DNA of 64,000 nt from contig CM060732.1 of assembly GCA_030704615.1 (NCBI GenBank), forward strand, positions 57,598,001 through 57,662,000, in the 5' to 3' direction. Both the position numbers and the translations under genes were made by a program. Shown in pieces: positions 9,035-63,130 of this stretch (the first letter of the stretch is position 1; each line of letters begins with the position of its first letter). This DNA is from Takakia lepidozioides (lineage: Eukaryota > Plantae > Bryophyta). The notes under the pieces are model-generated. The model did no database searches, had not been told where the DNA came from, and saw nothing but the letters and a program-made list of their open reading frames with translations.

Positions 9035-11529
9035 CTGACCAGTCCACCGTTTAGGAACATTACAACACTAGTGCGAGACTTCATGTCATCCACATCCCCT
9101 ACATCATGTCTGAATCACAATAGGCCTTGAGTCCATGTGGCTGCTCTTGCCCCCTATAGGTAATTCTTAAATTGAGTACTCATTTCAAATACCTTAGGAT
9201 CCGTTTTACCATCGAGCGGTGCGACCTTTTGGGATTTGAGCAATATTTTGCGGCAGTGCTGTCTGCATAGGTAATATTTGGCTATGTTCCCAAGCTGGCA
9301 AATTGTAGACTGCCAATGATCTCCATGTAAAGGAATTATGGCTTTTCCTCCTCATCCTATGTAAATAGCACATCTAGACGAACGTGTGGATCGATGGGAG
9401 TGGTTACAGCATGTGCGTTTTCATACCCAAACTTCTTGAGCACCTTTTGAATGTATTTGCTTTGGTCAATTCTCATGGTCCTTGCTTCCCTATTCCGAGT
9501 AACATGCAGCCTGACATAGTTCTCTGGCAGACCGTTGATGATGGTGAAAGCCTCTCCCATATAGGACAGGATCTCGTTCACTCTTCCAATCTTCCTACTA
9601 AAGGCCAACCCGTCGTGGACAAATATAGTGACAAACAACTTGGGATTCATCTGCCCAAAATAAACCCATGAATCGGCCGAGCTTGCCACCAGATCGTATG
9701 TTGTCAGAAAGGCATTGAAAGGCTTGTTCCAAACTCTGCTTGCCTGTTTTAGGCCATATAGTGCCTTCTTAAGGCGACAAACCTTTCCCTTGTTTGCTGC
9801 TCCATGAATATAATCTCAGATAGTTCCCCGTAGAGAAATGCGGTGAGCGAATTGCACTATATCAATGTCCACTGTAGCAGCAATCGACAGGATAGTTCGA
9901 ATAGATCGAATGTCACCACGGGTGAGAAAGTCTCTTGGAAATCTATTCTTGCTCTTTGGGTAAACCCCTTTGCAATGAGACGTGCAGCGCCCCACTCCTC
10001 CTTCAACATTGGTCTTTATCTTGAAGACCCACTTACATCTGATGACATGTCGTCCCTTTGGCAGATCCTCAAGTACCCATGTCTTTGTATTAGTGAGTTG
10101 TACTCGTCCTGCATGGCCTTGAGCCATTCGTCCTTTTGTTCTGACTTCATGGCCTCTTCAAATGTATTTGGTTCGTCGGGGATCTGTTCGATACTGGCCG
10201 TACAGGCATATGTGTTGCAATCTATGGGGTAAATCCAGTCTTCCCAATCTGGTAGGTGGGTTTTGAATCTTGGGAATTTCTTATGCTATCACGTTTCTAT
10301 TTCCCCCTGCTCCTCAATGCCGTCATGTGGTCTGTTTTCAGTTTGTGCTCTTTCTTCATTCACCACGTTTTCCGCTGCTAGTACAATCTCCCCCACTGCT
10401 TCTGTATTGTCCTCGCTATTGCTAATTACAACAAGCTCACAGTCTTGGTCTGAGTCTGGTCCGATGTCTTGTGCCACTACTGACACTTGCCACTGGCTAT
10501 GGCCCTGCCTCAGGCAACTCGCATATCACTGTTGGGGTTGTGTCGCTCTTACTCCCACTGTTTGGCTGCTTCTTATCCTCAAACCAACTCCAGTCTCATC
10601 AAATATCACATCCTGGCTTTCCACAATCTTTCGGGAATCTGTCATCCATACTCGGTAGGCTTTGCTTGTCTGGCTATAACCCACAAATACTTCCTTCTTG
10701 CTTTTGGGCTCAATTTTTGTTTTGAGTTCCTTCAGCACATGCATGTAGGCATCACACCCGAAGATCCTCATCTTGTTACTGAGGGTTTTCCTCTTGACCA
10801 TGCCTCATATGGTGTGATTCCTACCAATGTTCTGGATGCTATCCGATTGAGTATGTAGACAGCCGTGAGAACTGCTTCTCCCTAGAATCGTGGGTGCACA
10901 TTGCTTGAATAAATCATGTTGCGCACCATGTCCATCACTGTGCGATTTTCACGCTCTGAGGCCCCATTTTGCTCAGGCGAATGTGGTGCCGCGAACTCAT
11001 GCTTGGCTCCCAGCTCTCTCATAAACTCAAAGAATTTAGTCCCAGTGTATTCACCCCCCTCGATCACTCCTCAGGACCTTGACCTTCTCGCCTGTCATTC
11101 TGAACAGTAGTTTCATGAAATCTTGGAAGCACCTCAGTGTCTCAGATTTAGCAGCAATGCAGTATACCACTTTGTACGCATTTGCATCGTCCTTGAACAA
11201 AACAAAATAACTACTGCCTCCCACTTACTGGACAGTGATGGGACCGCACACATCACTGTGCACCAGATCTCCAGGCTTTGCAGCTCTGGTGCGACTTTCT
11301 TCCATGGAAAAGTAGTTCGGGTACTCTTACCAAGAACGCATCCCTCGCAGAATTCGACGTCTCTCCCTTTCTTGGTGAGGATAAGTCCTTCAACCATATT
11401 CTTCATCTCCATAGTCTGAATCACCCCGTGATGTACATGGCCAAGTCGCATGTGCCAAATGTTCAGATCACGACTCATCTCAGCTTGTGATATGATGCCA
11501 AAAGTACTAGCGGGGGACGCCGTTTCTCT

Positions 11530-11786
11530 CACTACTGCAAAAAGGGGGGTTTACGACGCCCACAGCCCGGCGCGCGCGGCACCATGCGACCCCACTTATT
11601 AGCGACACCAAGAGGGTCGCTATTCAGGGGTCGATATTATACCGACCTCTGAGGGGTCGCTATACTGAAATCCCAGCAAAATGAGATCCCAAAATGACTA
11701 AGTCATTGGGACAGACCCCCCTGGCGTCGCTAATACCGCGGGGTTGATTTCCTGTCGATTTTTCCTACGACGCCCCTGCCGACGAT
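11530..11786. mobile_element. CACTA (EnSpm) left terminus with GCGACC/GGTCGC subterminal repeats
   Basis: CACTACTGCAAAAAGGGG starts exactly where the copia ORF breaks off. Dense GCGAC/GTCGC motifs follow. The expected 3-bp TSD would be TCT. Confidence 0.85.
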
Positions 11787-12039: not shown

Positions 12040-12515
12040 TGGCCAATAACGGCACCAAAATTACCCCAGAGGAAGGGACGCGAGCGGAATTAGGATCTGG
12101 GTTTGCAGACTCCGAAAACGCAATGGCGACCTATAACCGTGGATAGTACTGTTGCAGAAGTGCAGGATGGTTGGGTATAACGGCACCGTAATTGGGCACA
12201 GGAAAAGAAATAGCCGGCTGAAGGCTCGGGAGTGAAGGCCAATAATGGTGCCGAAATTAGGCTCCGCCAACCAAATACCCTGCTGAACGGAGTGCAGCCA
12301 ATAACGGCGCCGAAATTGGGGTCCGGAAACCAAATATTCGGCTGAAGCCACCGGAGTGCAGCCAATAACGGCACCGAAATTGGGGTCTGGAAACCAAATA
12401 CCCAGCTAAAGGCTCGGGAGTGCAACCAATAACGGCGTCGAAATTGGGCTCTGGAAACAAAATTCTCGGCTGAAGCTTCCGCAGTCCATCTAATAACGGC
12501 GCCAAAATTGGGCTC
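12040..12515. repeat. Subterminal array, ~7 copies of CCAATAACGGCGCCGAAATTGGG, mostly at ~60-65 bp period
   Basis: Copies near 12043, 12176, 12239, 12298, 12362, 12427, 12492. The same motif recurs at 23886 and 46487. Confidence 0.85.
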
Positions 12516-12742
12516 TGGAGAGCAAATACCCGCCTTACAGTGAGGGAGTTTTGCAAACTATCCTGAAACTGGTGCGGATTTGTCTAATAAAAGCACACAT
12601 GTCGGAGGAAATAGAAGTTATGCCGCATACGACATTGGCAGTGCAGCAATGATATATCCCTCTTCCGCCGGCCTTTGCTCTTCACTCTTCTCTTCTGTGC
12701 CCATCTCCTCCCTGCTCTGTGTTCTTGCTGTGTCGTGAGGCC

Positions 12743-13294
12743 ATGTCGTGCCCGAATCACATCTATCGACGCCAGACGGGAGTCATTGTCCTGAAAGCAG
12801 ACGACATCATTGTCTTCCTAGATGTTTACAGGGACGATCCTCGACTTGTCCAGCTGAGAGCAATGGAGTTTCTTCCAGGATTACACAATTCTCCTGGACC
12901 CCGGCTGGGGAGCAGGTGGTTCCTACACATGAAGGACCTGGACTTTCCGCTTGAGTGGGAGCCGAACAGATCACGCACGGCGTTGCTGTATCGCTGGAAC
13001 CGTTGCGAGTGGACGTATGATGAGTGCATAAGTGAAAACTTCACGCGTGGACGGACTGGCTCGGAAAGTGGGGACATTCTCTTCAGTTATGAGGATGAGG
13101 AGGAGGGGAACACAGGGCCCACTGTGAAAATGTCCTTCTACAAAGGGGGCGCTATCGATAAACACGACATCCTCGTTAGTTTCAACCGGGCGACAGAAAC
13201 CGCTGACATTTTGTTCAAATATCGGCACCCGGTCACTCAGGAGGTCCTTGAGAGGCCAGTTCGAGTTCCTTCTTCTTGGGCGAGGGGACCATAG
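12743..13294 (+). CDS. Intronless 183-aa hypothetical protein (Mutator cargo ORF-A), paralog of 35457-36083
   Basis: Uninterrupted ATG-TAG frame. Collinear similarity blocks with the ORF at 35457 (see findings). Confidence 0.65.
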   Translation: MSCPNHIYRRQTGVIVLKADDIIVFLDVYRDDPRLVQLRAMEFLPGLHNSPGPRLGSRWFLHMKDLDFPLEWEPNRSRTALLYRWNRCEWTYDECISENFTRGRTGSESGDILFSYEDEEEGNTGPTVKMSFYKGGAIDKHDILVSFNRATETADILFKYRHPVTQEVLERPVRVPSSWARGP

Positions 13295-13399
13295 GTCTTG
13301 CATGTTAGAGTAGACATGTTTTGACTCGCCGACACTCATGGCACATACATTTTGCTTCAGAATTCAAGTAGCTTCCCTATGCCATATGGGGAATATACA

Positions 13400-13483
13400 T
13401 GTCGTGCACCTAAGCATCGTGCCACACATACATCCCTATCCACCACACAATCTAAGCACACAATCCTAGAAAGCTATACCCAA
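13400..13483 (-). repeat. LTR segment A, outer copy (84 bp)
   Basis: Direct repeat of 13907-13991 with ~5 differences. Confidence 0.9.
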
Positions 13484-13991
13484 TGATAAGAGATGAGAAA
13501 TGAGAGAAATAGAAGACAATGAAAGCTCTCAAAGCATGAAGCAATCACATGAAGAACAAGCCCTAGTCCTTCCAAGTGAAATCCGCTCTATCACATAAAC
13601 TAAGTCAAGCCAAGGGCACCTTTGCTAAAGGAATCCACCCTACAAAGCCCTCAACACACTCCCTCTCAATACCTAGAGCTATGGAGGTGAGAGAAGCTCA
13701 TGGAGGGTCAACTACAAGAAGATGAGCCTCCTCAACACTCACAAGGGGAAAACCTATCTCCATGTCTCAAGTGAGGCTCGACACCTCACTTGGCATGTGA
13801 GACCAAATGAAGTCCCAACACACAAAATATAAATATAAATATTTAAAATGTCCTAGTTAACTAGAAGTAGGTAATTCTAGATAACCATGACTAAAACCAT
13901 GAGAGCTGTCGTGCACCTAAGCATCGTGCCACAACATACATCGTTGTCCACCACACAATCTAAGCACACAATCCTAGAAAGCTATACCACA
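13484..13991 (-). repeat. Complete 3' LTR (segment A 13907-13991 + GC + segment B 13484-13904)
   Basis: On minus: PPT GGGGGGCG-AT-TGTGG ... TTATCA. Confidence 0.85.
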
Positions 13992-14257
13992 ATCGCCCCC
14001 CTAGCTGGTGGTTAGGTCCTTCTAACTCTAGATAGCTACAAGATGTAATAGCCACAGCCGTACTAAGTCCTCTATCGCTGTCTCTATTGTACTCAAACTC
14101 TATAGACCAAGAGGCCGGGTACAAGAGCAACCCCATCGTTAGTTGCCGTCTTGCAATCTGTGAACTTGAGTCAGGATCTCGTGTGTTGGTCTCCTAGTAG
14201 CTTGGCCTTGCATTTCTTGTTAGCCTTCCATGGTTGTATCCACTCCCACTATCCAAT

Positions 14258-14392
14258 GCAATGCGGACATAACCAATCCCCATCAAGAACCATCTCAAGA
14301 GGTGGAGTCAAGCATCCCATATGCCAACCTCTAGAGCATTGATCACACACCAGCATGGTGGCTGTCCCTCTAGCAGACCCACACAACATGCA
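14258..14392 (-). CDS. PHD finger at the integrase C-terminus
   Basis: CMLC-x11-CDQC-x4-H-x2-C-x14-CPHC, a C4HC3 pattern with the conserved W before the last pair. Confidence 0.9.
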
Positions 14393-14399
14393 CCTCAAA

Positions 14400-15541
14400 C
14401 TTGCAGGTACCACTGCCAGGTTTGGGTCAACCCTTCCATCAACATTTGGAAGGTGACATGGCGCGCAATTACGCACATGGTCCTTCCAAATCATGCCATT
14501 CCAACCCTCCAAGATCAGGACTCCTGAGGGCAACACCTCTCGAACCCTCAAAATAGTACGTCATGCAGTCACATCCAAGGTCGTAGGAGCAGTCTGCTGC
14601 AGATAAACATAGTCACCAAGGTTGAATCTTCGAACCCCAGGACGATAGCCCCCACCACGTATGGTAGCATACCTCAACGTATCACGATGTTGTGCAATGG
14701 CAAGGTTCTCGAAAGCCATGGGCATGACTTTCTTGAACAACTCTGCACGCTGCTCACATGCACGTGCCCACACGTCCGGATCGTCAAGGTTAAGAACTGT
14801 AGCAGCTTCTCTGCGAATGGATGTAGGCAAATCCGGCTCTCAGCCAAAGAGAAGAAAGTATGTTGAGAAGGAGGCAAGTGATGCTTGCTTGCTGAACCTG
14901 TAGCCCATAGCTAACCAGGGTAACTGAAGGTCCCAATCTCCTAGGTGTCCCTTCTACAAGCCATACTTGCGCAAACCCCTCTTTACTGTCTGAACAACTC
15001 TCTCTGCCAAGCCATCGGCCTCAGGATGATCCCAAGAAGTGGTGCGGTGGTCTATCAAGGCCTTGTCACACAAAGCCTGAAACTCCCCCAAGAACTCTCT
15101 CCCTTGGTCCGTGAGTACCTCAGCTGGAGCACCGAATCGGCTAAGCACACAATCCAAGAATGCATACGCAGTTCCCTCACTAGCCTTATCAGGCAATGGA
15201 ACCAATTCAATCCACTTGGAGAAGTGCTCCACCATCACCAACACGTACTTGTTGTGGCGCATGGTCAGTGGCAACGGCCCTGCGAAGTCAAGACTCCACC
15301 TGTACCCCAATCCCATGATCGAAAGAGGGTGCAATTGTGGAGTAGGGGCGTTGAATGAAGCACGCACCCTGTCACACACCATGCACCTAGCCACAAATTG
15401 TTGCACCTCTGTGTGCATACCACGCCACCAATACTGCCCCTGCAGTAGACTATGAGTGCGTCGCACCCCAAAATGCCCCAACTCCTCATGGGCATGCCGC
15501 ACTAACCGCGCCCGCTGTGTTGGGTGAGGCACAATCCTCAC
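14400..15541 (-). pseudogene. Gypsy integrase (H2C2 + DDE core + SH3-like tail), with in-frame stops
   Basis: HEELGH..CMVC, SLDFAGP, LTDQGREF, GLAERVVQ. Stops at ~14954, ~14840 and ~14561. Confidence 0.9.
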
Positions 15542-15580
15542 TCGACTATCCTCCTACACTCGGAGCAGGTGTGTCCCCTC

Positions 15581-17257
15581 CTACTTGAACCTCTTGGCTC
15601 GTTGTAGGATCCGATCCCTCTCCTTGGCAGTCACAGTGGCTGCAGTGTCTCCAGTGCGGAGGTAGTCCAACACAACTGAATCCTCATGTATATCTTTGGC
15701 GCCACCTTGCTCATTGCTGGCCTCAGGGTCCTCAGACACTTGATCTACAGTCATCCCTGTTGCAGGTCCAACCTGGCCTTCCGCTGCCAAGATACACAGA
15801 AATGCAGATGCATACCATCCGGGCACCATCTCCTCGTCCGTCTCACCATGCCACCGAGCTCCAGTGTCATCCTGCTGGCCCGTGCATGGATTGCGACTCA
15901 ACCCATCTGCATTGCGATTGACCAAACCCGGTCGATGCACCACCTGAAAGTCATACTCTTGAAGGATGAGTGCCCACCGTGCAAGCTTCCCCGTAAGCTT
16001 GTCTGACTCCATCAACCACTTGAGTGGTTGGTGATCCGTAACAAGGGTGAAGAGATTGCCGTATAGATAGCACCTGAAGTGTGCCACGGCCCACACTGCA
16101 GCTAAGCATTCTCCCTCATATGAGCTATACTTAGACTCTGCAACGTTGTTCGAGCGGCTAGCATAAGCCACTACGAACTTTCTTCCCTCATCGTCCACCT
16201 GTGTGAGCACCGCTCCAAGCCCCAGCATGCTCCAATCTGTATGCAGCTGAAAAGGACGCCCCCTGATAGGTCGTCTCAAGATGGGCGCCGAGGTCAACCT
16301 CGCCTTGAGCTCTTGAAAAGCTTGTTCTTGCTCATCTTCCCACTGCCACTCCTGGTCCACCTTGGTCAGCTTGGTTAGAGCCTTTGCAATGGCACTAAAT
16401 CCCTTAACAAACCGTCTATAATAGTTTGCTAACCCCATGAAAGCTCGAACTCGGCTCACATCCGTGGGGCGTGGAACCTGTGCAATGGACTCTACCTTAG
16501 TCTATTGTACCCCCAATCCTCCAGGATATATCATGTGACCCAGATACTCAATCTGGTTGTGGAAAAACTTGCACTTTCCCGGATGTAACTTCAATCCGTG
16601 CGCCCTCAAGCGCTCAAATACCCCCTGAAGGTGTCTCTCATGCTCTTCCACCGTAGCACTAAAGATGATGATGTCATCTATGTAGCACCGAGCAAACTTC
16701 ACCCCTGCTAGAATCCTGTCCATGACTCTCTGAAACTCTGCCGGAGCGTTCTTAAGCCCAAATGGTAAGAACCGCCACTGGTATAGGCAATCATTCCCGT
16801 GCTCATTGATCCCCCAGAATGCCGTCTTTTGCTTATCTGCCTCCTTGATCGGCAACTGGTGATATCCGGATCGTAAATCCAACGTGCTAAAGACCTTCGC
16901 ATGCCCAATGGCATCAAAGATCTCCTTTGGTGTTGGCATGGCATACCTATCGGACTTGGTCTGACGATTTACAGGCCGGTAATCACCGCACATACGTCTC
17001 TCCGTCCAATTGCCAAAGACATCCTTCTTGGCTGGCATCACTGTGGCTGAAGCATACTCTCCCCCAGATAGCTCCACCAAACCAGCCTCCCAAAGGTCCT
17101 GAGTTCTCATCTGAATCAAGGACCTCTCCATGTCACTGTATCTATAGGGTCTCCGAAAGATTGGCGTGTCAGTAGCCAATTCAATGCGAATCTCTTGACC
17201 CTTCAGTGCTCCTAAGTCCTTCAAATTGAAGGCAAAGCAGTTCCTGTAAGCCCTCAA
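15581..17257 (-). pseudogene. Gypsy reverse transcriptase and RNase H
   Basis: RMCGDYRPVN, LDLRSGYHQ, LPFGLKNAP, YIDD, LHTDWS, EGECLA, TDHQPL, NADGLSR. One stop at 16502. Confidence 0.95.
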
Positions 17258-17699
17258 GAACCGCCGTATACGTCGTCTCTCTCCTCCGGTGACTATAGGT
17301 CCAACATCAGGCTCTCAGTTGTCCTCCGTGACTGCAACCTTGAGTCCAGCAGGCTTAGAGGTAGAAGACGCATCTCGTGGTTGCTATGCTGCAACCTCTT
17401 GAGTAGTGACCACTGCCTCCTCTGTCAGTGACAATGTCTCATCCTGCCCCATCATCCCATCCTTGAGGACCTCCTCAATCCGAGAAAAATCCCCAACCTG
17501 ATCCATCACCGCCGCCTTGGCTGCCAACTCCTTCTGAACCTCGAGCACCTCCCACGTGTGTCATGGATGCGGCCTGCACCTCGTGGTCCTCACCTGCTCG
17601 CCCCCACTCGCTGCATGTACCGTCTCGGTAGGCAGGGAGACCATGAAGGGAAGTGTACTCCGTACTCTGCGCTGCTCAGCCATAGCCAAGCTGATAATC

Positions 17700-18615
17700 C
17701 AGGTCAAACAATTGAGATCCATTGCTTGCCCCAACACCTGACGACGTGATGCCTCAGAAAGAGATGGCACCATCGTGGTACCTGTGGTAAAACCCATCGC
17801 CCGCTCGCGCTCGTCAGCATTGGGCTCCACTAATTGTTGCAACTGGCTATCCCGCAAGAGGCCAGGTCCACCATCCCGAAAAGCATGGGATCCTGGGAAG
17901 CTGAGCAGTGTAGGTAATGCTGCTCGTGGTTGACCCACCCTGTTGACCACTGCTAAAGGCGAACGGTCATCGTGTCTCACACGTTGAGACTGCCTCCCTG
18001 TGTCCAAAATGCTATCCACTGTGAGGTGTGCTGGCCGTTGCACCCCATCAAATGCACGCTTGAGCAGTGCGGGTGGCATCAAGTTAGTCCACCATAGCCG
18101 TGGACGATGAGCCCATGACCCTACTGCAGCTACATCCAGCAACACTGCTGACCCAAGCCACGACCGGACTTGATGCACACTGGCCATCACCCTGGCCCGA
18201 GAATCACCCATCAGTTGCACATTCTCCAAGATGTATGCTGGAGATACAGCTTGATGAAGCTGCAAGTGGCGCAAAATCCGCACCATCTCCCAAAACAGAC
18301 CCGTCCTCGAGTCTCGCAATCCATTGTCATGCCCGGCTGATGAATGCCCTTGGCAGGGCCAACTTGCCACTACCAGATCAATAGCGCCCCCAGCAACGGA
18401 ATGTCTGCTGGCAAGGCTTGTTGGTATCCACGAACTGCAGACACTGGCAATAAATCAGGGTACTGTTGTACCAACTGAGCAACATGGCGCAGTGAGACGC
18501 GTCGTGCAGTCTCATCCCTCTCCACATACAGGTAACGTCAAACTCGTACACCCGCCTGCAGTACTGCAGCCAATCCAGTGCTGATCCCGCCAAACAAGTC
18601 CAGAAGACATATGCC
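17700..18615 (-). pseudogene. DNMT3-like C5 cytosine DNA methyltransferase domain inside pol
   Basis: Manual translation gives motif I LDLFGGIS (18586-18600), II YVERD, IV DLVVASWPCQG, V DSRTGLF, VI YILENV, VIII AHRPRLWWTN, IX ERERAMGF and X LGQAMD. One stop at ~18538 and one frameshift near 18385. Confidence 0.92.
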
Positions 18616-18663
18616 TTCATCCGGGCACTGCCACACAAGAGGTGTGGTGTCCAATGGCGACAA

Positions 18664-20631
18664 CTAAGGTGGTCCTAGTGCAATCACCGCACTCTCCTCT
18701 TCTCCTGACGGTACGAAGGCCTCTACCCAAGCTTGTTGTACCCGTCCATCAGCAGCCTGCTGCAAATCCTTGCTCGTACCCCATAATGGAGTGTGAGCAA
18801 CCATGGCAGGCAACTCCGCCGTACCATGTATGTCATCCTGCTCTGCTGGAGGTGGCACATCCTCTGCATGGGCATTGCCTTCCAGCAACTCTCCAGGCCA
18901 ACTAACTGCAGCTGTAAAGGCGGCTAGTGTTGGCATCTTGCCCCGCTGGGCAGCCGCAATACCCCCAATGAATGTCACAGGGAGCTGTGCACAACGACCA
19001 TCCCCTGACTGCCATCCAGGCCTGTAGGATGCTGACTCCTCCCAAAAGTCCAGGATGAAGCCCATGGGATATAACACTGCCCCACCAACAATGACATCGT
19101 AAGAGACCGCGTCTGTCACAATGGCCTTGGCTCGCATCACTGAGCCATCTACAGGATGATCTGGTTGTAGTCCAATGGCCAACTCACGCCGTGTCATGCC
19201 CCGGTTGGCCATGTCTTGGTCAACACCCTGACCTCCGCGTCTTTGGCCATGTTGAGCTTGCCCTTGGCCTGCACCTCGTGCCCGACCACCTCGTCCTCTC
19301 TGGGCTGGTCCACCTCGCCTCCGGCCACCATTGTTCCCTTGGAACTGGCCTGGGCGCAACTCAGGGTGCAAGTCATAACACTGGGCATCTCCATGCCCAT
19401 ACTTGCCACAATGCCCACACTGCAACTGTGCAGGCTGTGCTTGTGCCGGCCTTCTGCCATTCTCTGGGGAATCTCTCTTGACATGGGGTCCTCCACATGT
19501 CCAACATATCACCCTTGGTTGTTGTTGGCCTGCAAAAGATGCCACGGACCTCTGCACTTGAGAACCCCTGTAAGCTCCATGGAACTTGGGTTGGGCAACC
19601 TTGCCCCCCTGACCACGCTGTTGGGCACTCCCTTGTACCTGTTGGCTGGCAGCTGCACCTCGTGCAGGCATGTCCTTGCCAAATCCAATGGTAACAACTC
19701 GCTCCTCCACCATGTTGAGCTCAATCCGCTCAGCCAGCAGAAACACATCCGCTAATGTGGGTTGGGCTGCTTGTAACAGGGTTGCATCCCGCACCCTTCT
19801 CTTGAGCTCCTTGTCCAAAATTCCATACCAGAACTGGACTGCCTGAGCTTCAGTAACCCCTTGGGTCACACTTATCAAGCGCCTCATACGAGTGTAGGCC
19901 TCTCGCAAGCTCTCACTGGATTTGCGCTGGAAGTCTTGCAAACTTCGCAGCTTCTATGTCCGTACACCTTGGTAGTTCCTCCGCAACTCCTGGAAGAACT
20001 CCACCACCGGGTTGAATCTAGGCACATGTGTTGTAATTGTGGCAGGAGGAGTAGTAGCACCTTTTGAACTGGTACCACCTGCAGAAGTGCCGGCACTACT
20101 TGTTCCACTACTAGCGCTTGTAGTTTGAGATGTTTGTGTAGCTGCTGGTGTCACCGCTGCCCTTGTGCCTCTAGTGATTGAGACATAGTTAGGTGACCAA
20201 TACTCTCGCCACTCCTCAATCTCCACCGCATATCCCCGCCTAAATTCATGGTAATCATCCATGGGCGGCCCCTCAAGGTGCTGGAATAGCCCCTTCCACG
20301 CCATAAAGGGCGTAAACAGTTGTGGATTGCACATTTGCTGCAAATCACACCAACTGTCAAACTCTTGTATAAAGTCATCAAGCTCGATGGTGCCCACAGC
20401 TCCAGAGTACCTACGTGGCCCCTTGGTAGCTCCATACATCTCCTCCATCGTGTCCCACAACAATGGCACGGAAATGACTTGCACCTTTGGCGAGAATCCT
20501 CCTGACTCCGAGTCTGAACCTTCCTTAGAAGACACTGAAGGTGAAAGTGGCCTAAACCGCACACCTTGTCTTGTGTACCCACTAGTATCGCTGGTGCTTG
20601 TACCGGCACTCCCCTCAGCAGCTGGTGGCAC
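18664..20631 (-). pseudogene. Gypsy gag (two Zn knuckles) and partial aspartic protease
   Basis: QDFQRKSSESLREAY (gag homology), CWTCGGPH and CGHCGKYGHGDAQC. Protease C-half YDVIVG is present, but no D[ST]G motif is visible. Stop at 19954. Confidence 0.85.
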
Positions 20632-21448
20632 CTCTGTGATGAAAACTCACAACCCAACCGGTTGTCAACCTGTCTCTAATCCCCACTTTCTACAAGGTAA
20701 CCGGGTAAAGAACCTGTTGCGGCTACTGGTTCAAGCAGGAATAATAGGTTTCTAACGTAGACATGTACCTGCACCTGCATCCACCGCAAGCACTCATATG
20801 ATCTGCCGGTCATCAACCCAGCCTCACCATAGAAGAAACACTGGTGGTCTTGCTGGTCATCACTCCAGCCTCACCACCGACAGCATACTCTAGGATTGGC
20901 CGGTGATCAAATCTGGACCAACCTCCTATGAAAACAAGCGCCCACACAAAGCTAACATGGCGCACAGTCGAGCATGCAGGTGTGGAGGGGATCCAAACAC
21001 AAGAAAATCAAGACAGCAACTCCCCCACACCAAAAACACTCCACAGTGTCGCTCCTGCAAGGATACCCCAGCCCAAACCCGGACTGACTCTTGCCTCCAC
21101 CTACGGAAAGGTTTTGGCCTACAGAGAGGGTGAAAGACTATGGAGAAGAGAAACTAAAGCAATTCCTAACCCCAGAATGCTCTCATCCCACCACTCTCCC
21201 TTCTGTCTCTATCCATTCGCTTGTATGGCCGTGGCAAATATCCTTCAATATCCCTCAATCAATCCTTCAAGAGCTCTTCAACATTGTCCACCAAAGCTCC
21301 TCAAAGGGTCCTCCAAGGACCCCAAAGATCCTCCAAACACTCCTCCAAGGACCCCAAAGATCCTCCAAATACTCCTCCAAGGGCCCTCAAATATCTTCCA
21401 AACAATCCTCCAAAGGCCCTTAAATTTCACTAAGTCCTTTCACTGTTG

Positions 21449-21845
21449 ATACCTTAACAGAGGTATAGTCTGAGGTTGCTAGGGTCCCTTATGTTGATGA
21501 TACCTTTACAGAGGTATAGTCTGAAAATGAGGGTTCTGTTTGGTATACTAACAGAGGTATAGTCTGAGCTGATTAGGGTCCACATATGGTGATACCTCAA
21601 CAGAGGTATAGTAAAAGGGACAAGCTTCTGTTTGGTATACTAACAGAGGTATAGTCTGAGCTGATTAGGGTTCACATATGGTGATACCTCAATAGATGTA
21701 TAGTAAAATGGACAAGCTCATATTTGGTATACTAACAGAGGTATAGTCTCACATTAGGGTTCACATATGGTGATACCTCAACAGAGGTATAGTCAAAGGG
21801 ACAAGCTCCTGTTTGGTATACTAACAGAGGTATAGTCTGAGCATA
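21449..21845. repeat. Tandem array of 9 ACAGAGGTATAGT-core units (~45 bp, dimeric ~90-bp period) in the gypsy leader
   Basis: Cores near 21458, 21508, 21551, 21600, 21643, 21690, 21735, 21781 and 21824. Confidence 0.9.
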
Positions 21846-23138
21846 CACTACTAGGGTTTGTAATGAAGAGCTAGAATGCAAGTCCTTGACTTCTATGCTT
21901 CTACTCAAGCAAAAATATGGTCTCTAGGTGGTCATAAGAGGCATCTTCTTGCTCTCTTCCACCCCAATGGTTAACCAAGAGTGGTCCAACTCAACTTGCA
22001 AGTCATTGTCCACCAAATCAATCCCCCTTCTAGTCCTTGGGATTTGATTGCAAACTACCATATCTCCATTGCCGAGCAATCATGCATTTGTCTCCTCATC
22101 ACTTGACAATTGCTCCAAATCAACACAAATTATCTCAATGTGTAGGAGCAATGCTTGTCACTTACAATAATGCTCCCAAGCAATCCGCCGTGGATCCCAC
22201 TCTCACGCCATATGCCTCATTTGGGGTCTTGCACCAATCCATCATCCATGTGCTCCCCGTGGTCATTTGAATGCATGTTTCATGACCTCTTGGCCTATGT
22301 GTTGCTCTCCTTCATCATAACATGAATCAACACCTCTCCACTTCATACACAAATGGATCTCAAAGGCCTTCACCTCTTGCTAGTTCAAGAGCTCCCCTTC
22401 TCAAACTTGAACTTACAAACTCAAGCGAGCATGCTCCACACATGCACCACTTGCTTGGTCAACTATCCACCACAAAGCTCGCACTACCAAGAGCATGAAT
22501 AGCCAAGTATTGCCTCCCCCTCTTGTCACATTACATAGTTAGGGTGAAGCTATGCATACATTGAATGATGATTTCCCTTCAAGGATTTCCCACCACATGT
22601 TCTCCAAGCCCTTCCAATGGCACCCTAAGCTTGGCTCCACACCACCATGTTTGGAAGATTTCTTCGCATGCTCCCTTTCAAAACCTCTTGAGCTTCTTAG
22701 TGCTCTCCAAGTGCTTGCCCTTGTTGTCTTCAAGCCCAAGCATATATAGCTCCTTGGCTTCTCTTCCACACCATCCACACTTTGAACTTGCTTAACCCTA
22801 GCTTGATAGTGAAATGAGCACTAACAAGCCTTTAGTCACTCTCCACAAGCCATGGCGCACACCATCGACTCCATAATGCATACAAAGGATTCTCAAACCC
22901 TAGAATCCATGCTTCCACACACACAAGACTTCCTCCTTACAATCCTTGCAAAATCTTGTGACTCAAGAGCTTTCTTCTCAAGCTCTCCAACTCCTTGGTG
23001 CATGCAATACTCGAGCACCTTTCCTTGCAACCCCTTGCAAGCCTTCTGATACAAGAGCTAAATTCTCCTAGCTCTCAACCTCTTTAAAATACAAGTGCAA
23101 AACTAATCCTTACACTCCGCACTCACAAGCATAAGGTG

Positions 23139-23150
23139 ATCTTCTTGTAG
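23139..23150 (-). promoter_or_regulatory. Putative self-priming PBS (CTACAAGAAGAT)
   Basis: Abuts the 5' LTR end and lacks TGG. Perfect 12-nt complement of LTR positions 23379-23390. Confidence 0.7.
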
Positions 23151-23571
23151 TGATAAGAGATGAGAAATGAGAGAAGTAGAAGACAATGAAAGCTCTCAAA
23201 GCATGAAGCAATCACATGAATAACAAGCCCTAGTCCTTCCAAGTGAAATCCACTCTATCACATAAACTAAGTCAAGCCAAGGGCACCTTTGCTAAAGGAA
23301 TCCACCCTACAAAGCCCTCAACACACTCCCTCTCAATACCTAGAGCTATGGAGGTGAGCGAAGATCATGGAGGCTCAACTACAAGAAGATGAGCCTCCTC
23401 AACACTCACAAGGGGAAAACCTATCTCCATGTCTCAAGTGAGGCTCGACACCTCACTTGGCATGTGAGACCAAATGAAGTCCCAACACACAAAATATAAA
23501 TATAAATATCTAAAATGTCCTAGTTAACTAGAAGTAGGTAATTCTAGATAACCATGACTAAAACCATGACA
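23151..23571 (-). repeat. 5' LTR, segment B only (421 bp)
   Basis: ~98% identical to 13484-13904. Starts TGTCATGG on minus. Confidence 0.95.
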
Positions 23572-24157
23572 TACATGCTTGGATAATCTTCTGTTACGGT
23601 TTTTTGCAATTCACTGCCAGTATGCTGGGACGTGTCCTTTGCCGTATGGATTGTTGTGTGCACAAGGTGCAGTATGCAAATGCTGGAATGTGCAGTAGGA
23701 CCCTTCCCTCTTGGATACAGAACTTGCAATCTTGTAAAGGCATGACATTTGCAGAACACTGACAATGTATTGGTAGCAAATCGGAGTCTTCTCATAAAGG
23801 TGGACGAAAACGCCAGGATGGGCTGCGAAATCACCACAAATTGAATGAAGAGTAGTAACAAGGAAACACTATGCAGTATACAGACCAATAACGGCGCTGA
23901 AATAGGCCACAATGCCCGTGTATCTCCACACAATGTATGCTTTCCTCGGATCCATTAATAGACATAACCAAAATAAAAAAAAAACATGCCCATGCCATTC
24001 ACGGCCAAAAACCACATTCTCATGTATTGCGGCACCGAAATGCACCTGGAGCCATGGCGGTGCGGCACCACCAAGTGTATAATTCCTCACAAAAAAATAT
24101 GGTGCAAGAAGATTAATGTAATATAATTGTCACTTTCTCCTTCCCCAATGTGGAATG

Positions 24158-27100
24158 TCAAGCAGTCCGACCTATATCATGCCGTAGGGCCTTGTGTAGC
24201 TCGTTGAAGCTCAGTGTTGGAGCATGGATGAAGACGTCCACTGCGGATATGCAACTCATGCGCTTCAGAAAAATATAATGAAGGTGTTTGCAGGGGACGT
24301 ATGCTGCATTCTTCGATTCCATAACAAGGAAGTCTTCACAGTTGCAAGCTGGGTACTGAGAAACCGTGATTGCATACACGACATTGCGCGCAGCAAACCC
24401 GGCTGTTGACAACTGAAATATGCGCCCAATCCCGGGGTGAGGAACATCCCTGCAACCTTGCACTATGTAGGGCATTGCAAGAGCGTTGGCCATCCTGGTG
24501 TTGTTCGCCTTTGTTGGTGGCCGCCGTCTTTTCAGTTTCCCCCACCGATGGGTGGGCCAAGCTGCGGGGTCGTCCACCGGTATGCGGGGTGAAGAGCTTC
24601 TCGTGGGAGGAGGATGACGACTAGAATTGGATTTCGTGGAACGTCTGTCCTCTCCACCAGTCGAAACCCTGCACTTCCTAGAGCGTCTGCCTCCTCCAGG
24701 GTAAGATCTGTACCAGTTGCCACAGGCCAGACTGCTGGTGGTTCAGGCATGCCTTGTACACCATACGTGGGCTTGCCGAACACACACGACATGATGTCGT
24801 GCCTGCAGAACCAAAACTCCTTCAGTGTGGCCTCCACAAACTTTGCGCACACATATCTCTCTGTGAAGCAAGGGGCAGGCACACCGCCCTGCGGGCTCCT
24901 CCGAATCATCTCATTGCATCTCTGCTTGGTGTCGACACGAACAGCACAACATTTTCCACGAAATGACGGACGGGTCCGTGCAATTCTCCACTGCGAGGCC
25001 GACACATCTCGCTCCACGATTGGAATGTTGTATTGGGTAACGATAATAGGAGCGACATGCTCATCCTCGGCATGTTGTCCCGAGTCTGGCAGCGATTCCA
25101 TGGATGCTGCAGGAGAGGGGGTACGAGTCCTGCTGGGAGGAGGCGTGGGACGCAACATCGTTGCGCCCCGAGGTCGAGTGCGGATGTTCATATCTGATCT
25201 CCATGAATCGCCGTCGCCTCCGGGCATGTCCTCAATTCTTCTCTTCACCGGCCGGCTGCGGACATCGCCCTCCAGGCAGTTCCCCCGACTGTGTAACGGC
25301 CTTGACCTTATTGTTTCCCGCAATGCAGCAGTCCATTTTTTGGGATCGGTCGAACGATGCGCCGCCCTCATCAGCATCTTCTGCCTGTCTGGTCTGATAC
25401 CCCATTGCTTTCCTCCCAGAAACTGGTAGTAACGAGATTGTTGCATGATGGCCCTCACAATATCTTCTGTTGTTGCTGTCAACATGTCAACGAGATGTGC
25501 CGCAGAGGAAGCACGCCAGGAAGAGTGCACCGATTCGGCCATGTTCGTCGTCGGCATATCTGTGTCATCCTCCAAGCTCATGTCCTGTTGCAGGAAAATT
25601 AGAAATGTCACTCATTGTGGAGAATGTCCAAGCACAAAACAGAATAATTGTCAAGTACAGAAATGTGTTACCTGTCTCATGTAGTCTCCAAACTGCCGGA
25701 ATCTATAGTGCCACCACGCAAGCCACGTTTGCAGTTCTGGCTGATCTTTCACATCCACTGCCCCTGAAGACACCCACCAGGCGCATATGGTTGCAAACTC
25801 GGTCTCCGCCTCGTCGATGGAATTCGCATTTTTCCACGCAAGGCACATACTGATATAATCCTGCCGGTGGCGTGACGCCACGAACCTTTTTGTGTTTTGC
25901 GTCAAACTCTGCATGAAGTGAAACCCGCAAGATCTCTCATTACCTTCCATTGGAGTCTTTGGGTCGTCCCCATATACCCTCCTCACTGCAGCCCAGTTCG
26001 CCTGGGCATTGTCAGCCATGAAGCCCCTAAAATCAGGAGGGGGCAACTTTGTTCTCGCCATTTGCTCATTAATTCCGCGCCACATATGCAACTCCGAATC
26101 TGTGTCTTCTCCTTTCATTTCGCAGATAGCAATGGTCATCAACTTTATGCAATGTGGGTCGTATACATGTGCCCCCATTGTCACCCAATCGTGGTTGGTA
26201 ATTCACCTGATGTGGTCGAACATGACCCAGCAATTTGAGAGGTCTCCACTGGTCATCCACTTCACCAAATCGACACCGCTCCCCGGTCCGCACGTTGACA
26301 ACTTAAATATGAAGCACTTGTTCGTCTCTGAGCCTTGACCAGGAAAGAAGCTGCCCTGGATGAAGTCGTAGCCGCGTGTGCACTTCAGTTCCAAGATGAA
26401 GTGCATGTATGATCCTCTTCCGATTCGTTTCTTACAGCCGACAATGTGGTTCCTGACATTGGGGCTGCACACATGGGAGATAGCTTCCAGCAGCTCCTTC
26501 ACCCCTCGTCCAACTTCTCTCTTGTGCTTCCGTCCTCCGACATTATTCTGCCAATTGCAATTCTATGTGCGGATGCGAGCTGTATTTGCTTTGGTTTTGC
26601 TCCCGGCCTCAACCTCACCTCCTCCTTGATAATATCGTGGGCTTGTTGAAAAACGACTCTGCAATTGCCTCTGGCGACGGGGTGGTCATGCTTTCCGATG
26701 TGAATGCATGCTCTGGTGCACGCTGGGCCGACGGTCCCGACGTAGTACTGCTTGGCGTTGCACACTGCCATGCACGTAGGGGCTGCGTTGCAATGGGCGC
26801 ACTTGAACGTCCCTGCAGGAACTCTACCTTGAGGCCAAAATGGGGTCGACGAATTGCCAATCCAGTCTGTCTCATTCCGGGGGCCTTTGCTCGTGTAGTG
26901 GTAACATGTGCTCAAGAAACATTTAAGATGCCCAGCACACAATACATATCTCACTCGAACTCCATCACCCAGGTTGGACGATGAAGTTTTGGTGACACAC
27001 CAAGGGTGGCCGTCATGTTTCCTGTTCATTCCTGCCAGCATGTCGTCTGGGCCTACGCCTGCCGGCACTGGAGGGAACTCGTAGATAGCATTCCCATCCA

Positions 27101-40368: not shown

Positions 40369-43300
40369 ATGGTACGCTCACGGGTTCGGCCAATCACGGA
40401 GGATGATTATCGAAATGTAGTTCCACCCGACAAAGAACACCTCCAACAATGATGTCCGCATGTTTGATGTAATTCCATCTCTTTCAAGACGTCGTCGACG
40501 TAGGGATGAGCGGTTGGCGGACGTACCTGGAGAGCCTCACGTGATTCATGCACAAGGCCTCGAGCATCCCGTTCCACGTCCCAGCTTGCCACCTCGAGGT
40601 CCTAGGCCTCTTAGTCTAGAGCCACGAGGCCCTGATCGAGCCACTTTGGACAAACCCCCTCGGGTGGAGTGTTGGTGCGTGCGATGTTGGGCACGAGTGG
40701 CACCTGGAGGTGTTCCCGTGATGCGGCAGGATCATATTGTGGATGAACACTATCAGACATTGGGGATTGCCGATGCGGCAAGGGTGAGCCTTCTATAACC
40801 CATTGTTGTAACATTTTTTGTGCTGGTGTATAAGGACGTACGTTTGTTGTAAGTACTCGGATGTTTAAAAATGACTTGTAATTGATACTATAAAGTTACT
40901 GTGGTTAAATATATGAGTAAACAACAAACTAATTGTATGAATTTTATATTACGTGCAACCACGGAGAGCATGTGCGTGCTACCACGTGTCCCAAGTGCAA
41001 AAAATCTAGATACCGAGATGATGTTCAAGGAAAGAAGATCCCACGAAAGGTACATTTCTCTTATATTTTCTTTCCTGCCATTTATATTTATATACATATA
41101 TACATGTGTCCACCAACTAATATATCATTTTAGGGTGTAGGGTTTAAGAGGTTGTTCATTCCGATATTATTAGGGTATGCATATAGGTTATATGAATCCT
41201 TCAACTAATGTAGACTTTACAAAATATCTACATACAAACCTTTGCAAATATATACCCCTCTCTTACGTACAATATGTGGATCCAAATGACAGAAAGTAAA
41301 TATTGATATATTTGTTGTGTTTGTTGGGAAGGTTAGAAAATGCATTATTTTCCAGTCATCCCGCACTTGAAAGCACAATTTCGGAGTCCATCATTTGCCC
41401 AACTCATGAAGTGGCATGCGGAGCATCGGAGCCCTCCCGGAAAGATGTGCGGCCCTCACGATTCGCCGGCATGGAAATACACCGAGGAACAATGGCCTTT
41501 TTAGAAGGACGATCCAAGACATGTTTGGCTCGGCTTCTCCGCGGATGGTGTAAATCCACATTCAGTCTAGGCAAGTAGTCATTCCACATGGTCCGTGACT
41601 TCGGTTAACTACAACATCCCTACTTATCTTGCTATCAAGAAGGGTCATATCATGTTGGCTGCCATTTGCCAGGTGAAGAACACAACTCTGTTTTGTTGCT
41701 TTAGGATGTACGTGGTAGTACAATGTCGGATATATATGGAACTAAGAATATTATTTGTTCTGTTTGAATTTGAAACGATCTTATATATATTACAAATAAT
41801 TTGTGTTGTAGGGAAAAAACAACTTGCGAATATGGATGTGTATCTGCGTCCATTGGTTGACGAACTCAATATATTATGGAATGGAGTTCCAGCTTTTGAT
41901 GCATCGGCACCCACTGGCCAACGTTCTTTTCTCTTGCGAGGGCTTTTGCTATGGACAATGCATGACTATCCATGTACATTTTAATTTGATATTACCTATA
42001 ATATATATATTCTACTGTATATCATGTGTTTGTATGTGCTTTTCATGATTTTTCTTTACCAATTCATGTTTTTGTTCGGTTCACTGAAATTATACGAGGC
42101 GACGAATGTTAAATCCCAACTAAATTCATGGTTTTGTGTAGGGCTTTCAGTTTGTTCGGGACTAAGCACAAAGGGGTACGCAGCATGTTCATGTTGTGGG
42201 GCGGATAACCTTGATGCAAAGCATTCGAAGAACGTCGCGAAAATGATTTATCCCAACTACAGGAAATTTCTTCCTCTCAACCATCCATGGAGAACAAGAG
42301 GCAAGAAATTATTTGATGGGACTGTGGAGAGGAGACCTCCACCCGTGCGTCCTCTTGGGTCATTTTGGAAAGCCCGGTGGCAAGAGGTGCTGGATAAAAA
42401 ACGCCGGCTCAAGAGGTGTGGCATGTCCCGGCTCTCAATCTTCTACGAGTTGCCTTATTGGGAGGTACAAGTCCGAAATGCATTGGACCATACATATTTC
42501 ATTGAATGTCATGACATATTCATATGAAATTGCACCGAGTTCAGGTTTTATGACAAATTATATGGAAATTTCATGATGCGCAGGGTCTGAAATTCCGGCA
42601 CCTCCTTGATCTCATGCATATTGAGAAGAATGTGTGCTCATCACTTATTCGTGTACTGACAAACTTAACCGGGGGGGGGAGAAACGCGGCGGTGATTCCC
42701 TTGGTGTGAGGCGAGAGCTCCAAGCCCAAAACTGTATGCCACGACTATGGCTTGAAGCTGATGGTGTGGACGTGAACAATGCTCCCAAGTGTAAGTATAG
42801 GGCGCCAACTTGGACTTGGACAAAGGAGGAATACAAGCAAGTGCGGACCACAATACGAGCTATCCGGACCCCGACCGGGTATGGCGCATCTCTACGCAAC
42901 AAATTTGAGGATGACACCACTATCCATGGTTTGAAGTCTGATGACTACCACAACATTTTGCAAGACATCCCCATTGCAATACGAGGGACACTCCATGAAG
43001 GCATTCGAAAAGCCGTCTATCGACTTGCTGATTTATTCCATTGGCTTTGCACAAAAGAGATGGACAAGGCGGATTTTCCACGAATGAAGGAGGAGGCGGC
43101 CATGGTCTTGTGTATGTTGGAGATGCATCTTCCCCCTAATTGCTTTGACATCCAAGTGCATTTGGTAGTGCACTTGGTGGAAGAGGCGGAGATTGCCGGA
43201 CCGGTCCATGCTCGGTGGATGTACTTTCTAGAGTGTTACATGAAGGAGGTCAAGGCACACGTGCGGCAAAAGGCACATCCCGAGGGTAGCATGGCGGAGG

Positions 43301-44688
43301 GGTACACATTGCAAGAGGCTATGGTGTTATGTACGGAGTACATGAGAAGGGTGGACAAAGAGGCCCCTCCAATGTGGAAGGAAGAGGATAATGTGCGGAA
43401 CAAGGACATGGTTTTGCCCAAAAAAACAAGGAGGGTGAAACTATCGAACACCGAGGTGGAGCAAGCACATGACTTTGTATTGAAGAACACCCCTTGCATA
43501 GTGGAGTGGGAGGCAAGACATGTGGATGAGAATGCACGGCGGTTGGAAGCAAGTACAATTTGGAGACAAACACGTGCGAGGGAATTGCGAGCCTCACGAG
43601 GACGGCGCGGATCCAGGAGCTCGGCCCCATTGGGGATGCGTGATTTGCCCACGGAGATGCAGCCATTGAAATCACTTCGCCATTGGCTCCGGAGTGGAGT
43701 TGAGGCTGCGATGGCCGCGGGCGAGGTGGTGCCGCCTTTAGTGCAAGAGCTTGCGAGAGCGCCATCTCAATATGCCATTTCATTCTCCTCTAATTGGATT
43801 CATGGTCGTCATTTCCACATCCGTTCTTTTGACATGCGTCGGAAGACCACATTTGACTCCGGTTTGTGTGCAACATATTGGCAAGACTCCGTGTCAAGCA
43901 CAAGGGACATTCGACCTGAGAGAAGCAAGCTTGAATATATTGGGGAGCTTGATGTCATTTTGCAACTCGAGTATGATCGCTATCGCCCTATTTTTTTCAA
44001 GGGGAGGTGGTTCCAACCCCACATTGCAGGCCCAAATGCAACCCTCTTGCCTGACGAGTGTGGCTTCATGCGGGTCAACACTTCCAGGATCACGCCCTCC
44101 ACACGCATCTCCAATGAACCATTTGCATGGCCGAAGGACATGGAACAAGTCTTTTTTTCCAAAGACAAGACTAGATCGAGCAATTGGAAGGTGGTTGTGT
44201 ATGCTAGGCCAAGAGGGAGATGCATTTACCATGGCGAGGGATCAAACCGTTGGGGTGGTGATGAGGCCGAAGTGGCCGAAGCGACCGAGGTGGACGAGGT
44301 AGCCGATGCGGATGCGGATGCGGGAGATGATGCTTCGTGGATAGAGGCAATTGAAGACACTGCCTTGAACAATGTTGGAGGAGATGAAGTGGTTGATGCG
44401 AATATTGCACCGGAGGAGGAGGAGGACAAAGACGAGGATGACGATGAGGATAATGACCAGGATGACGATGACGATGACGATGACAATGAGGATGTACAAG
44501 GAAAGGAAGATCCTATTGTGCCGCCTCCTATTGACCCTCCGGTCGTGCAAGAGCCATATGAATATATGGATGATGATTCGGCTTCTGATCATGACTCTCT
44601 TAAGAAGGTCAATATAGTGACTTCGATGAGGACAATAGACAGGAGTTGGAGCTTGATGAGGAAGATGATGTCCCTCCTGATGGCATGA
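40369..44688 (+). pseudogene. CACTA/EnSpm transposase (Transposase_21 + DUF4218 + DUF4216-like, acidic tail), spliced, with stops
   Basis: CPKCKKSRY..KIPRK, DSPAWK..DPRHVWLGFSADGVNP, MDVYLRPLVDEL, WTMHDYP, DLMHIEKNV, GLKSDDYH, GPVHARWMY..E, HPEGSMAEGY, DECGF and NEPF..QVFF. Start position approximate. Confidence 0.92.
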
Positions 44689-62811: not shown

Positions 62812-63130
62812 TCAATCACATAAACTAAGTGAAGCCAATGGCACCTTTGCTAAAGGAATCCACCCTACAAAGCCCTCACCACACTCCCTCTCAATACCTA
62901 GAGCTATGGAGGTGGGAGAGGCTCATGGAGGCTCAACTATAAGAAGATGAGCCTACCTCAACCCTCACGAGGGGAAAACCCATCCCCATGTCCCAAATGA
63001 GGCTTGACACCTCATTTGGCATGCGAGACCAAATGAAGTCCCAACACACAAAATACAAATGTAAATATCCAAAATGTCCTTATTAACTAGAAGTAGGTAA
63101 TTCTAGTTAACCATGACTAAAACCATGACA
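62812..63130 (-). repeat. Diverged copy of LTR segment B (same family as 23151-23571), ending at the same CATGACA terminus
   Basis: Collinear with ~23255-23571, roughly 90% identical by eye. Abuts an unrelated protease ORF. Confidence 0.9.

Follow-up and report, generated by a model that had tools for sequence, protein, structure and literature searches.

A Ty3/gypsy retrotransposon of Takakia lepidozioides with a DNMT3-like methyltransferase, a PHD finger and permuted terminal repeats

Location and domain content of the element

The stretch of DNA analysed here (the window) comprises 64,000 nucleotides of contig CM060732.1 of Takakia lepidozioides. It contains a Ty3/gypsy element of 10.2 kb, located at 13400-23571 on the minus strand, whose polyprotein coding region (14249-20646) holds gag, a protease remnant, a DNMT3-like cytosine methyltransferase (DNMT), reverse transcriptase (RT), RNase H, integrase and a C4HC3 PHD finger. 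The element is a relative of KnitGypsy-Dnmt3 of Klebsormidium nitens, described by de Mendoza et al. 2018 (PMC5890265), and a member of the known Gypsy-DNMT3 lineage. The order protease-RT-RNase H-integrase with a DDE integrase, the polypurine tract (PPT), the TG...CA termini and the target duplication (here 4 bp, of the 4-5 bp class) are those of Ty3/gypsy elements. Instead of two identical terminal long terminal repeats (LTRs), an arrangement of two repeats, A-coding-B-A-B, was found. We assign a probability of about 0.6 to the reading that the DNMT is packaged with Gag and methylates the element's own complementary DNA (cDNA), that the PHD finger binds histone H3 unmethylated at lysine 4 (H3K4me0), and that the cDNA integrates after circularisation. 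The coding region and the internal region upstream of it are composed as follows (all on the minus strand).

20449-23138: long 5' internal region, containing a 92-bp tandem array (21495-21842)
19378-20448: gag, with a capsid-like region; of its two zinc knuckles, that at 19506-19483 is degenerate and that at 19419-19378 is CCHC
18960-19230: aspartic protease, C-terminal half (YDVIVGG, 19101-19081); the N-terminal half with the D[ST]G motif is absent
17690-18610: DNMT3-like C5 cytosine methyltransferase domain, motifs I-X in order, with a stop at 18540 and a frameshift at about 18384
17378-17386: conserved in-frame stop TAG-CAA-CCA between DNMT and RT, a likely read-through signal
16529-17170: reverse transcriptase (YIDD, 16684-16673; Pfam RVT_1, 2e-33)
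15953-16258: RNase H (Pfam PF17917, 3e-36)
14600-15496: integrase, with an HHCC zinc finger, a DDE core (LDFAG in the area of D15286, TDQG, GLAER) and a GPY/F-like stretch; broken by stops
14258-14392: C4HC3 PHD finger at the integrase C-terminus (Pfam PF00628, 7e-11)

Pfam searches of the minus-strand open reading frames (ORFs) gave, from 5' to 3', DNA_methylase (5.4e-12, ORF 17564-18454), RVT_1 (2e-33), RT_RNaseH (3e-36), Integrase_H2C2 (5e-17), rve (9e-15) and PHD (7e-11, ORF 14252-14560). The original prediction, made from the sequence alone, had described the methyltransferase motifs as lying in order with one stop and one frameshift and had proposed a profile search of the translation; both the motifs and the DNA_methylase match were found. 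Gag had no match in Pfam and is 60% identical to residues 1-354 of Marchantia protein P0003.

The window copy is dead, and has been so for long, despite the 98% identity of its repeats. The whole element carries 11 premature stops in addition to the one conserved stop at 17386, and lacks about 300 residues of Marchantia P0003, among them those of the protease D[ST]G motif. Recent activity of the family had been deduced from LTRs of ~98% identity; the present copy has the 11 stops and the frameshift and has lost half the protease. The identity itself is real (412/419 bases), but belongs to repeat A of the split arrangement and not to an ordinary LTR pair. The family is abundant in the host, since 79,693 contigs of sequencing run X1 match a 12-kb stretch, a figure of contig depth and not of copy number. 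At the frameshift site other host contigs have extra bases (loose ends 18382-18384).

Conservation of the methyltransferase and of the stop behind it

Motifs I (LDLFGG, 18603-18586), II (YVERD, 18528-18514), IV (WPCQG, 18361-18347), VI (ILENV, 18232-18218), VIII (AHRPRLWW, 18112-18089), IX (ERERAMGF, 17812-17789) and X (GQAMDL, 17731-17714) of the DNMT follow each other in the canonical, unpermuted order, and the circular permutation of DRM enzymes (VI-X, then I-V) was not seen. The C-terminal piece alone had DNMT3A as its first match (E 4e-4), and a profile of 26 domains matched DNMT3A at 1e-26 and DNMT3B at 1e-22, followed by DRM (8e-12 to 3e-8) and by bacterial and DNMT2 enzymes at 1e-8 or weaker. 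A structure model of the naturally intact domain of related locus L004 (pLDDT 93.7) found only DNMT3A, B and C among the matches listed. By family and modelled fold the domain is therefore of DNMT3 type, with a predicted enzymatic role.

The domain was found in at least 44 longer proteins with the same neighbours, including one of Calypogeia fissa (68% identity), many gene models of Marchantia polymorpha and proteins of Sphagnum. Among the best 120 of 1543 pol relatives, it lies between RNase H and integrase in 61 (Haematococcus, Pleodorina and Chlamydomonas included) and before RT in 11 (including Klebsormidium KFL_009030040; one of the 11 is a weak match), and 48 have no DNMT on the ORF. Metagenome loci with enough sequence (n=29) had the DNMT before RT in 20 cases and after RNase H in two. 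Several loci represent the same insertion seen twice (L010/L011, L020/L022, L014/L028, L017/L019, L032/L033, L057/L064 and L051/L052). L020/L022 and L060 are deletion derivatives which lack gag-protease-DNMT and retain RT-integrase-PHD and the split repeats.

Trees were built with FastTree and midpoint-rooted, from 119 RT proteins (short RT omitted) and 106 DNMT domains (those under 230 aa omitted), P0104 being omitted; the samples were drawn from this lineage, so that neither another gypsy lineage nor host DNMT3 served as outgroup. Both trees placed the window element beside liverwort and moss sequences. The RT tree grouped window, Marchantia and Klebsormidium sequences with support 0.996; the DNMT tree was congruent, recovering the same pre-RT group (0.938), and the post-RNase H type was separate in both. 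The link to Klebsormidium, which had been suggested from the sequence, is thereby borne out. According to the trees the DNMT position was free to move between lineages. As judged from these sequences the lineage is an old one of green plants, which spans liverworts, mosses and green algae and is not rare in land plants; the earlier view of such elements as non-standard there needs amending for the liverwort and Sphagnum members.

The catalytic Cys is present in 98 of 106 domains of algae and land plants, and the motif VI Glu in 101. Before RT (n=44), 41 domains have the Cys, 44 the Glu, and 41 and 42 the two Arg; after RNase H (n=62) the corresponding counts are 57, 57, and 58 and 57. The S-adenosylmethionine (SAM)-binding motifs I, II and X are retained. 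Between the stop-free loci L004 and L005, the ratio of nonsynonymous to synonymous substitution rates (dN/dS) was 0.11 for DNMT, 0.04 for RT and 0.12 for gag; for the window DNMT against three moss-type loci it was 0.07-0.09, with synonymous sites near saturation. The DNMT is under purifying selection, with dN/dS of about 0.1.

The original prediction had named copies without the domain, or neutral evolution, as signs of a one-off event. That an ordinary LTR element once captured a host DNMT3 fragment, now drifting, would accord with the broken DNMT of the window copy, and is extremely improbable in view of the 44 homologues with the same neighbours, the 20/29 loci with DNMT before RT, the low dN/dS, the congruent trees and the fact that other host contigs cover DNMT as they do RT.

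DNMT and RT share a frame, and 22 of 23 loci have an in-frame stop 62-69 codons ahead of the RT reference point. Its context is TAG-CAR in 16 loci, the remaining 6 being C-to-T or G-to-A derivatives. TAG-CAR-YYA is the leaky stop of the tobacco mosaic type, and is complete in the window, L001, L004, L005 and L048. TAG-CAR is most probably a leaky stop here also, as judged from its context, so that DNMT would be made at the level of Gag and in excess over RT and integrase; the RT-integrase-PHD product is likely made by read-through. The position of the stop at 22/23 loci means that DNMT ends the Gag-protease product and that DNMT (the writer) and PHD (the reader) are not joined in the more common product; database proteins that stop behind DNMT or start at RT are accounted for in the same way. 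DNMT, which had been described as part of pol, is not simply that, being in frame with RT but separated from it by the stop.

PHD finger, probable self-priming and permuted ends

The PHD finger had been reported to end the integrase, and it was found in 112 of the best 120 of the 1543 pol relatives. No chromodomain match was obtained for the window element in Pfam, the PHD being in its place. Relatives of the finger among solved structures (PDB) are CHD4, KDM5A/B PHD1, PHF12, ATXR5, PHF21A, DPF, BAZ2, UHRF1 and AIRE, and no ING, BPTF or TAF3 finger was among the best 60 of 68 PDB matches. The fingers of CHD4, KDM5 PHD1, PHF21A, BAZ2, UHRF1 and AIRE read unmethylated K4. In readers of H3K4me3 the cage Trp stands two residues before the zinc-binding His. 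At this position the 86 fingers that could be parsed (of 115) have Gly (81), Ala (4) or Pro (1) and in no case Trp, so the aromatic cage of ING/BPTF-type readers is lacking. The finger is predicted to bind H3 tails unmethylated at K4.

A mobile writer-plus-reader, in which the DNMT, guided by the PHD, would methylate host sequence at the insertion site, in its vicinity or in other elements, is quite unlikely in our estimation. It would suit the 61 of the best 120 pol relatives in which DNMT, lying between RNase H and integrase, shares a polyprotein with the PHD, and the PHD class, which matches what the ADD domain of DNMT3A reads. Against it, the stop and the RT-RNase H part separate DNMT from integrase-PHD in the window element and in mosses and liverworts, the DNMT position shifts freely between lineages, and the K. 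nitens methylome is ordinary for a plant although the element is present. Methylation of the element's own cDNA is the likeliest task of the DNMT because of the Gag-level packaging and the CG activity of the dinoflagellate retrotransposon DNMT3s.

The ends of the element and the sites within them are listed below. They are given by coordinate; read along the coding strand, the succession is A1, primer-binding site (PBS), coding region, PPT, B1, GC, A2 and B2, with TACA on either side.

13396-13399: 4-bp target-site duplication TACA, left copy
13400-13483, minus strand: repeat B2, at which the inserted element truly has its 3' terminus (final bases CACGACA)
13484-13904, minus strand: repeat A2, 421 bp, 412/419 aligned bases identical to A1
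13901-13910, minus strand: internal B1|A2 junction with the CA-GC-TG palindrome, putative integrase attachment site; one base changed here
13907-13993, minus strand: repeat B1, 87 bp, 94% identical to B2, starting at the polypurine tract
13994-14006, minus strand: polypurine tract AGCTAGGGGGGCG, the same tract as in moss-type loci
23139-23151, minus strand: primer-binding site, not of tRNA type, 13/13 bases complementary to a stretch inside A
23151-23571, minus strand: repeat A1, at which the inserted element truly has its 5' terminus (first bases TGTCATG)
23378-23390, minus strand: self-primer inside A1, putative 5' end of the transcript; second copy at 13711-13723
23572-23575: 4-bp target-site duplication TACA, right copy
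62765-63130, minus strand: a further (third) repeat of A type, which belongs to a sister subfamily, has a self-priming site of its own and is followed by neither DNMT nor pol within the window

None of 300 shuffles reached the 13-base pairing of PBS and self-primer. In 7 of 9 moss-type loci the best partner had one common position, 171 bases from the end of A, and a sequence unlike that of the window; the test was significant alone in 4 of 9 and not in L009, L020, L021, L023 and L033. The sister copy at 62765-63130 forms 12/13 pairs and carries one compensatory change. No TGG start, as of a tRNA-type PBS, was present in any of 10 left repeats. A PBS-like stretch at about 23045 was rejected, as other contigs differ there, and the resemblance between the A1 end and a CACTA terminus was put down to coincidence with the PBS. 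The sister repeat appears, by eye, to be inserted into the protease gene of another gypsy element.

The A start and the B end are the termini of the family, because host contigs leave there into mixed flanks: 20 X1 contigs at the A start (agreement 0.44), and 40 X1 and 24 X3 contigs at the B end (0.38-0.39). The moss-type loci L011, L021 and L029, unrelated in sequence, have the same layout with 4-bp duplications (3/3 complete). With X denoting the coding interior, such duplications flank 4/4 complete A-X-B-A-B copies and 2/3 testable A-X-B copies. Among distinct moss-type 3' ends, 7 of 14 stop at B1. The target duplication and the related loci led us to reject A as part of a second, nested element.

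In the 1.5 kb that follow the PHD, 15 of 44 loci contain GACA-NN-TGTY, where 1.5 would be expected; NN is GC in 11 of the 15, and distant DNMT-less relatives are among the loci with the palindrome. The B1|A2 spacer is 2 bases in every copy. The A2|B2 joint is nearly precise in most copies and imprecise in L013 and L057/L064. In L005, L045, L046, L050, L053 and L068 each arm of the palindrome at the junction has either CG or TG/CA, and the position is the same in both; it looks as though a methyl group (5-methylcytosine or T) were tolerated or read there. The contigs of L039 (1-123/9049-9171) and L065 (1-99/11374-11472) have identical ends, as in a circular assembly, and contain whole elements; they are either collapsed repeats or true circles.

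A proposed route of replication, related systems and neighbourhood

ORF1 consists of gag-protease-DNMT and ends at the conserved TAG, after which RT-RNase H-integrase-PHD follow in frame. The RNA would very probably prime the minus strand with its own first ~12 bases, as Tf1 does, and the PPT would prime the plus strand, giving a linear cDNA whose LTR equals B+A. Through self-priming the cDNA would stop on the right at the end of A, and through the PPT on the left at the start of B, the product being [B-A]-X-[B-A]. Its ends would then probably be joined (A2|B2 representing the circle joint) and the integrase would cut the CA-GC-TG palindrome inside the left LTR, where one staggered cut would yield two processed CA-3' ends and a 4-bp duplication. 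A-coding-B-A-B copies would come from a 2-LTR circle and A-coding-B copies from a 1-LTR circle (or from later recombination). The DNMT may, by a slight balance of likelihood, methylate CG sites of the cDNA before insertion, with the new copy bearing a host-like mark, and the PHD would probably tether the integrase to H3 tails without K4 methylation, away from active promoters. Cleavage of palindromic circle junctions has been reported for foamy-virus integrase (PMC1180852), and the SymbioDIRS-Dnmt3 enzymes of Symbiodinium methylate CG in yeast (PMC5890265).

Several observations weigh against this reading, and those on the DNMT are given first. Closely related decayed copies have DNMT dN/dS of 0.5-1.0 (RT 0.33-0.70), which is expected after insertion. 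CpG observed/expected ratios, taken as a trace of self-methylation, overlap between DNMT loci (0.47-0.75) and DNMT-less ones (0.44 and 0.71), and neither CpG nor CHG depletion yielded such a signal in the loci compared. DNMT is absent from 7 of the 29 metagenome loci. Just 5/23 loci have the full CAR-YYA context, most moss-type loci having CAA-CCC, and an acidic residue before the first PHD cysteine, of which readers of unmethylated K4 often make use, occurs in 36/86 fingers and not in the window copy. The Klebsormidium domain showed no de novo methylation in yeast, a result its authors call inconclusive (PMC5890265), and DNMT-like inserts without catalytic residues exist in Chlamydomonas P0137 and Pleodorina P0089. 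These degenerate inserts (residues 1223-1532 and 696-1009, respectively) were missed by Pfam. The inactivity in yeast, the retention of degenerate domains, an expression at Gag level suggestive of a stoichiometric function, and the replacement of the motif IV Pro by Glu in 39/62 post-RNase H domains would all agree with a domain kept for DNA or RNA binding or for a structural function in the particle, or to decoy the methylation machinery of the host, catalysis being secondary. We consider this very unlikely, as Cys (98/106), Glu (101/106) and SAM motifs I, II and X are kept.

As to the ends, the exact palindrome is absent within 1.5 kb in 29/44 loci (many of which end at B1 or are decayed), and the DNMT-less relatives L045 and L051 have the same palindrome and repeats, so that the odd ends do not require DNMT. 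If a 2-LTR circle were cut symmetrically, A-B-A-X-B should arise as well, a form seen in none of 9 distinct loci with a left A, against 5 with A-X-B-A; therefore either the cutting is selective or a template jump replaces the circle. By such a programmed jump, B would be copied to the right end, the left end trimmed and the linear product integrated without a closed circle, A-X-B arising by later B1 x B2 recombination. This alternative, unlikely in our judgement, accounts for the missing form and for the nearly precise A2|B2 joint of most copies, but the imprecise joints with filler or loss in L013 and L057/L064 resemble end-joining, 7 of 14 ends at B1 is a high number for recombination of 113-bp repeats, and the common 2-base CA/TG spacer is what one staggered cut requires.

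Integration through a circle can be extended, tentatively and with considerable doubt, to the whole lineage, which may have abandoned end-based integration and would instead self-prime, circularise, cut its LTR palindrome, supply every particle with DNMT3 at Gag level, pre-methylate the circle by this enzyme and target H3K4me0 by the PHD. If this is true, it would be the first retroelement with a DDE integrase to use the circle as its normal route, and, having no paired LTRs, it would escape the usual LTR finders when bryophyte and algal genomes are annotated.

KnitGypsy-Dnmt3 has the Gypsy domains, an intronless, unpermuted DNMT3 between protease and RT under purifying selection, and a DIRS-like A-coding-B-A-B order (legends of Fig. 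4c and 1e) noted without explanation (PMC5890265). Klebsormidium protein P0118, of the same RT clade, is 45% (DNMT), 43% (RT), 59% (RNase H) and 59% (integrase) identical to the window element. The available text of that paper contains no mention of a PHD (0 occurrences), of land-plant or chlorophyte members, of self-priming or of a mechanism for the repeats; it describes no read-through stop, and in P0118 a single gene model covers both DNMT and RT. Gypsy-7a_cRei of Chlamydomonas reinhardtii (bioRxiv 2022.06.16.496473) resembles the window element in its gypsy polyprotein with a PHD, and shows an intergenic insertion bias; it differs in its near-ordinary LTRs (the left one 8 bp short), and no DNMT is described in the available text. 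C. reinhardtii P0137, which may be Gypsy-7a, is among the pol relatives and has its degenerate insert between RNase H and integrase.

Tf1/sushi elements and the Tcn1 chromoviruses of plants share self-primed reverse transcription and a chromatin reader at the end of the integrase, but have a chromodomain in place of the PHD, ordinary LTRs and no DNMT (PMC6317226). The complementarity of PBS and repeat A in the window element is of their self-priming kind. PHD and methyltransferase have 0 occurrences in the available text of that survey (PMC6317226). The Ngaro/PAT elements of DIRS order and SymbioDIRS-Dnmt3 share the A-coding-B-A-B repeats, and the Symbiodinium elements have a DNMT3 in pol. Elements of DIRS order use a circular intermediate. 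They have a tyrosine recombinase and usually no target duplication, whereas the window element has a DDE (rve) integrase, a PPT and 4-bp duplications. EpiLTRs (bioRxiv 10.64898/2026.05.21.726589) likewise pair DNA methyltransferases with a chromatin reader in LTR elements, but the components are DAM, a DNMT4-related enzyme and a chromodomain, the hosts are Cymbomonas and Euglena, and the authors call them distinct from the streptophyte Gypsy-DNMT3 elements. Two later papers mention the present lineage merely as "streptophytes", with no detail in their available text, and a wider distribution may be given in their supplements. No account of land-plant or chlorophyte members, PHD-DNMT pairing, the read-through stop or circle integration was found in a literature search whose scope did not include subscription journals, Repbase and bioRxiv supplements.

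Plant transposons are restrained chiefly by DNA methylation. This lineage has kept a de novo-type methyltransferase of its own from green algae to mosses and liverworts, and its Marchantia polymorpha members make the question raised in 2018, on the role of a retrotransposon DNMT3, testable in a genetic model. The present analysis adds the class of the PHD, the read-through stop and the existence of two positions for the DNMT. Whether LTR circles can be productive substrates for integration has long been asked in retrovirology, and the permuted ends are relevant to it. Caution is due in annotation, as some bryophyte genes annotated as "DNA methyltransferase" are transposon ORFs.

Other repeats surround the element in the window. 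Just beyond its 3' end a stop-free frame of 213 codons (12653-13294, plus strand), covered by many host contigs and without a Pfam match, represents a repeated ORF adjoining a 64-bp tandem array (12164-12543). A decayed Ty1/copia remnant lies at 9816-11550 on the minus strand (gag_pre-integrs 4e-12, weak RVT_2). On the other side, at 24158-26202 (minus strand), overlapping ORFs without a Pfam match carry a CxC...CKH motif, which we take to be SWIM-like, and probably are a remnant of a Mutator-like element (MULE)-type transposase. Further along are a CACTA/En-Spm transposase region at 41985-44688 on the plus strand (Transposase_21, DUF4218, DUF4216), a long interspersed element (LINE) endonuclease-RT at 56351-59151 (plus strand) and a separate gypsy gag at 59958-61007 (minus strand).

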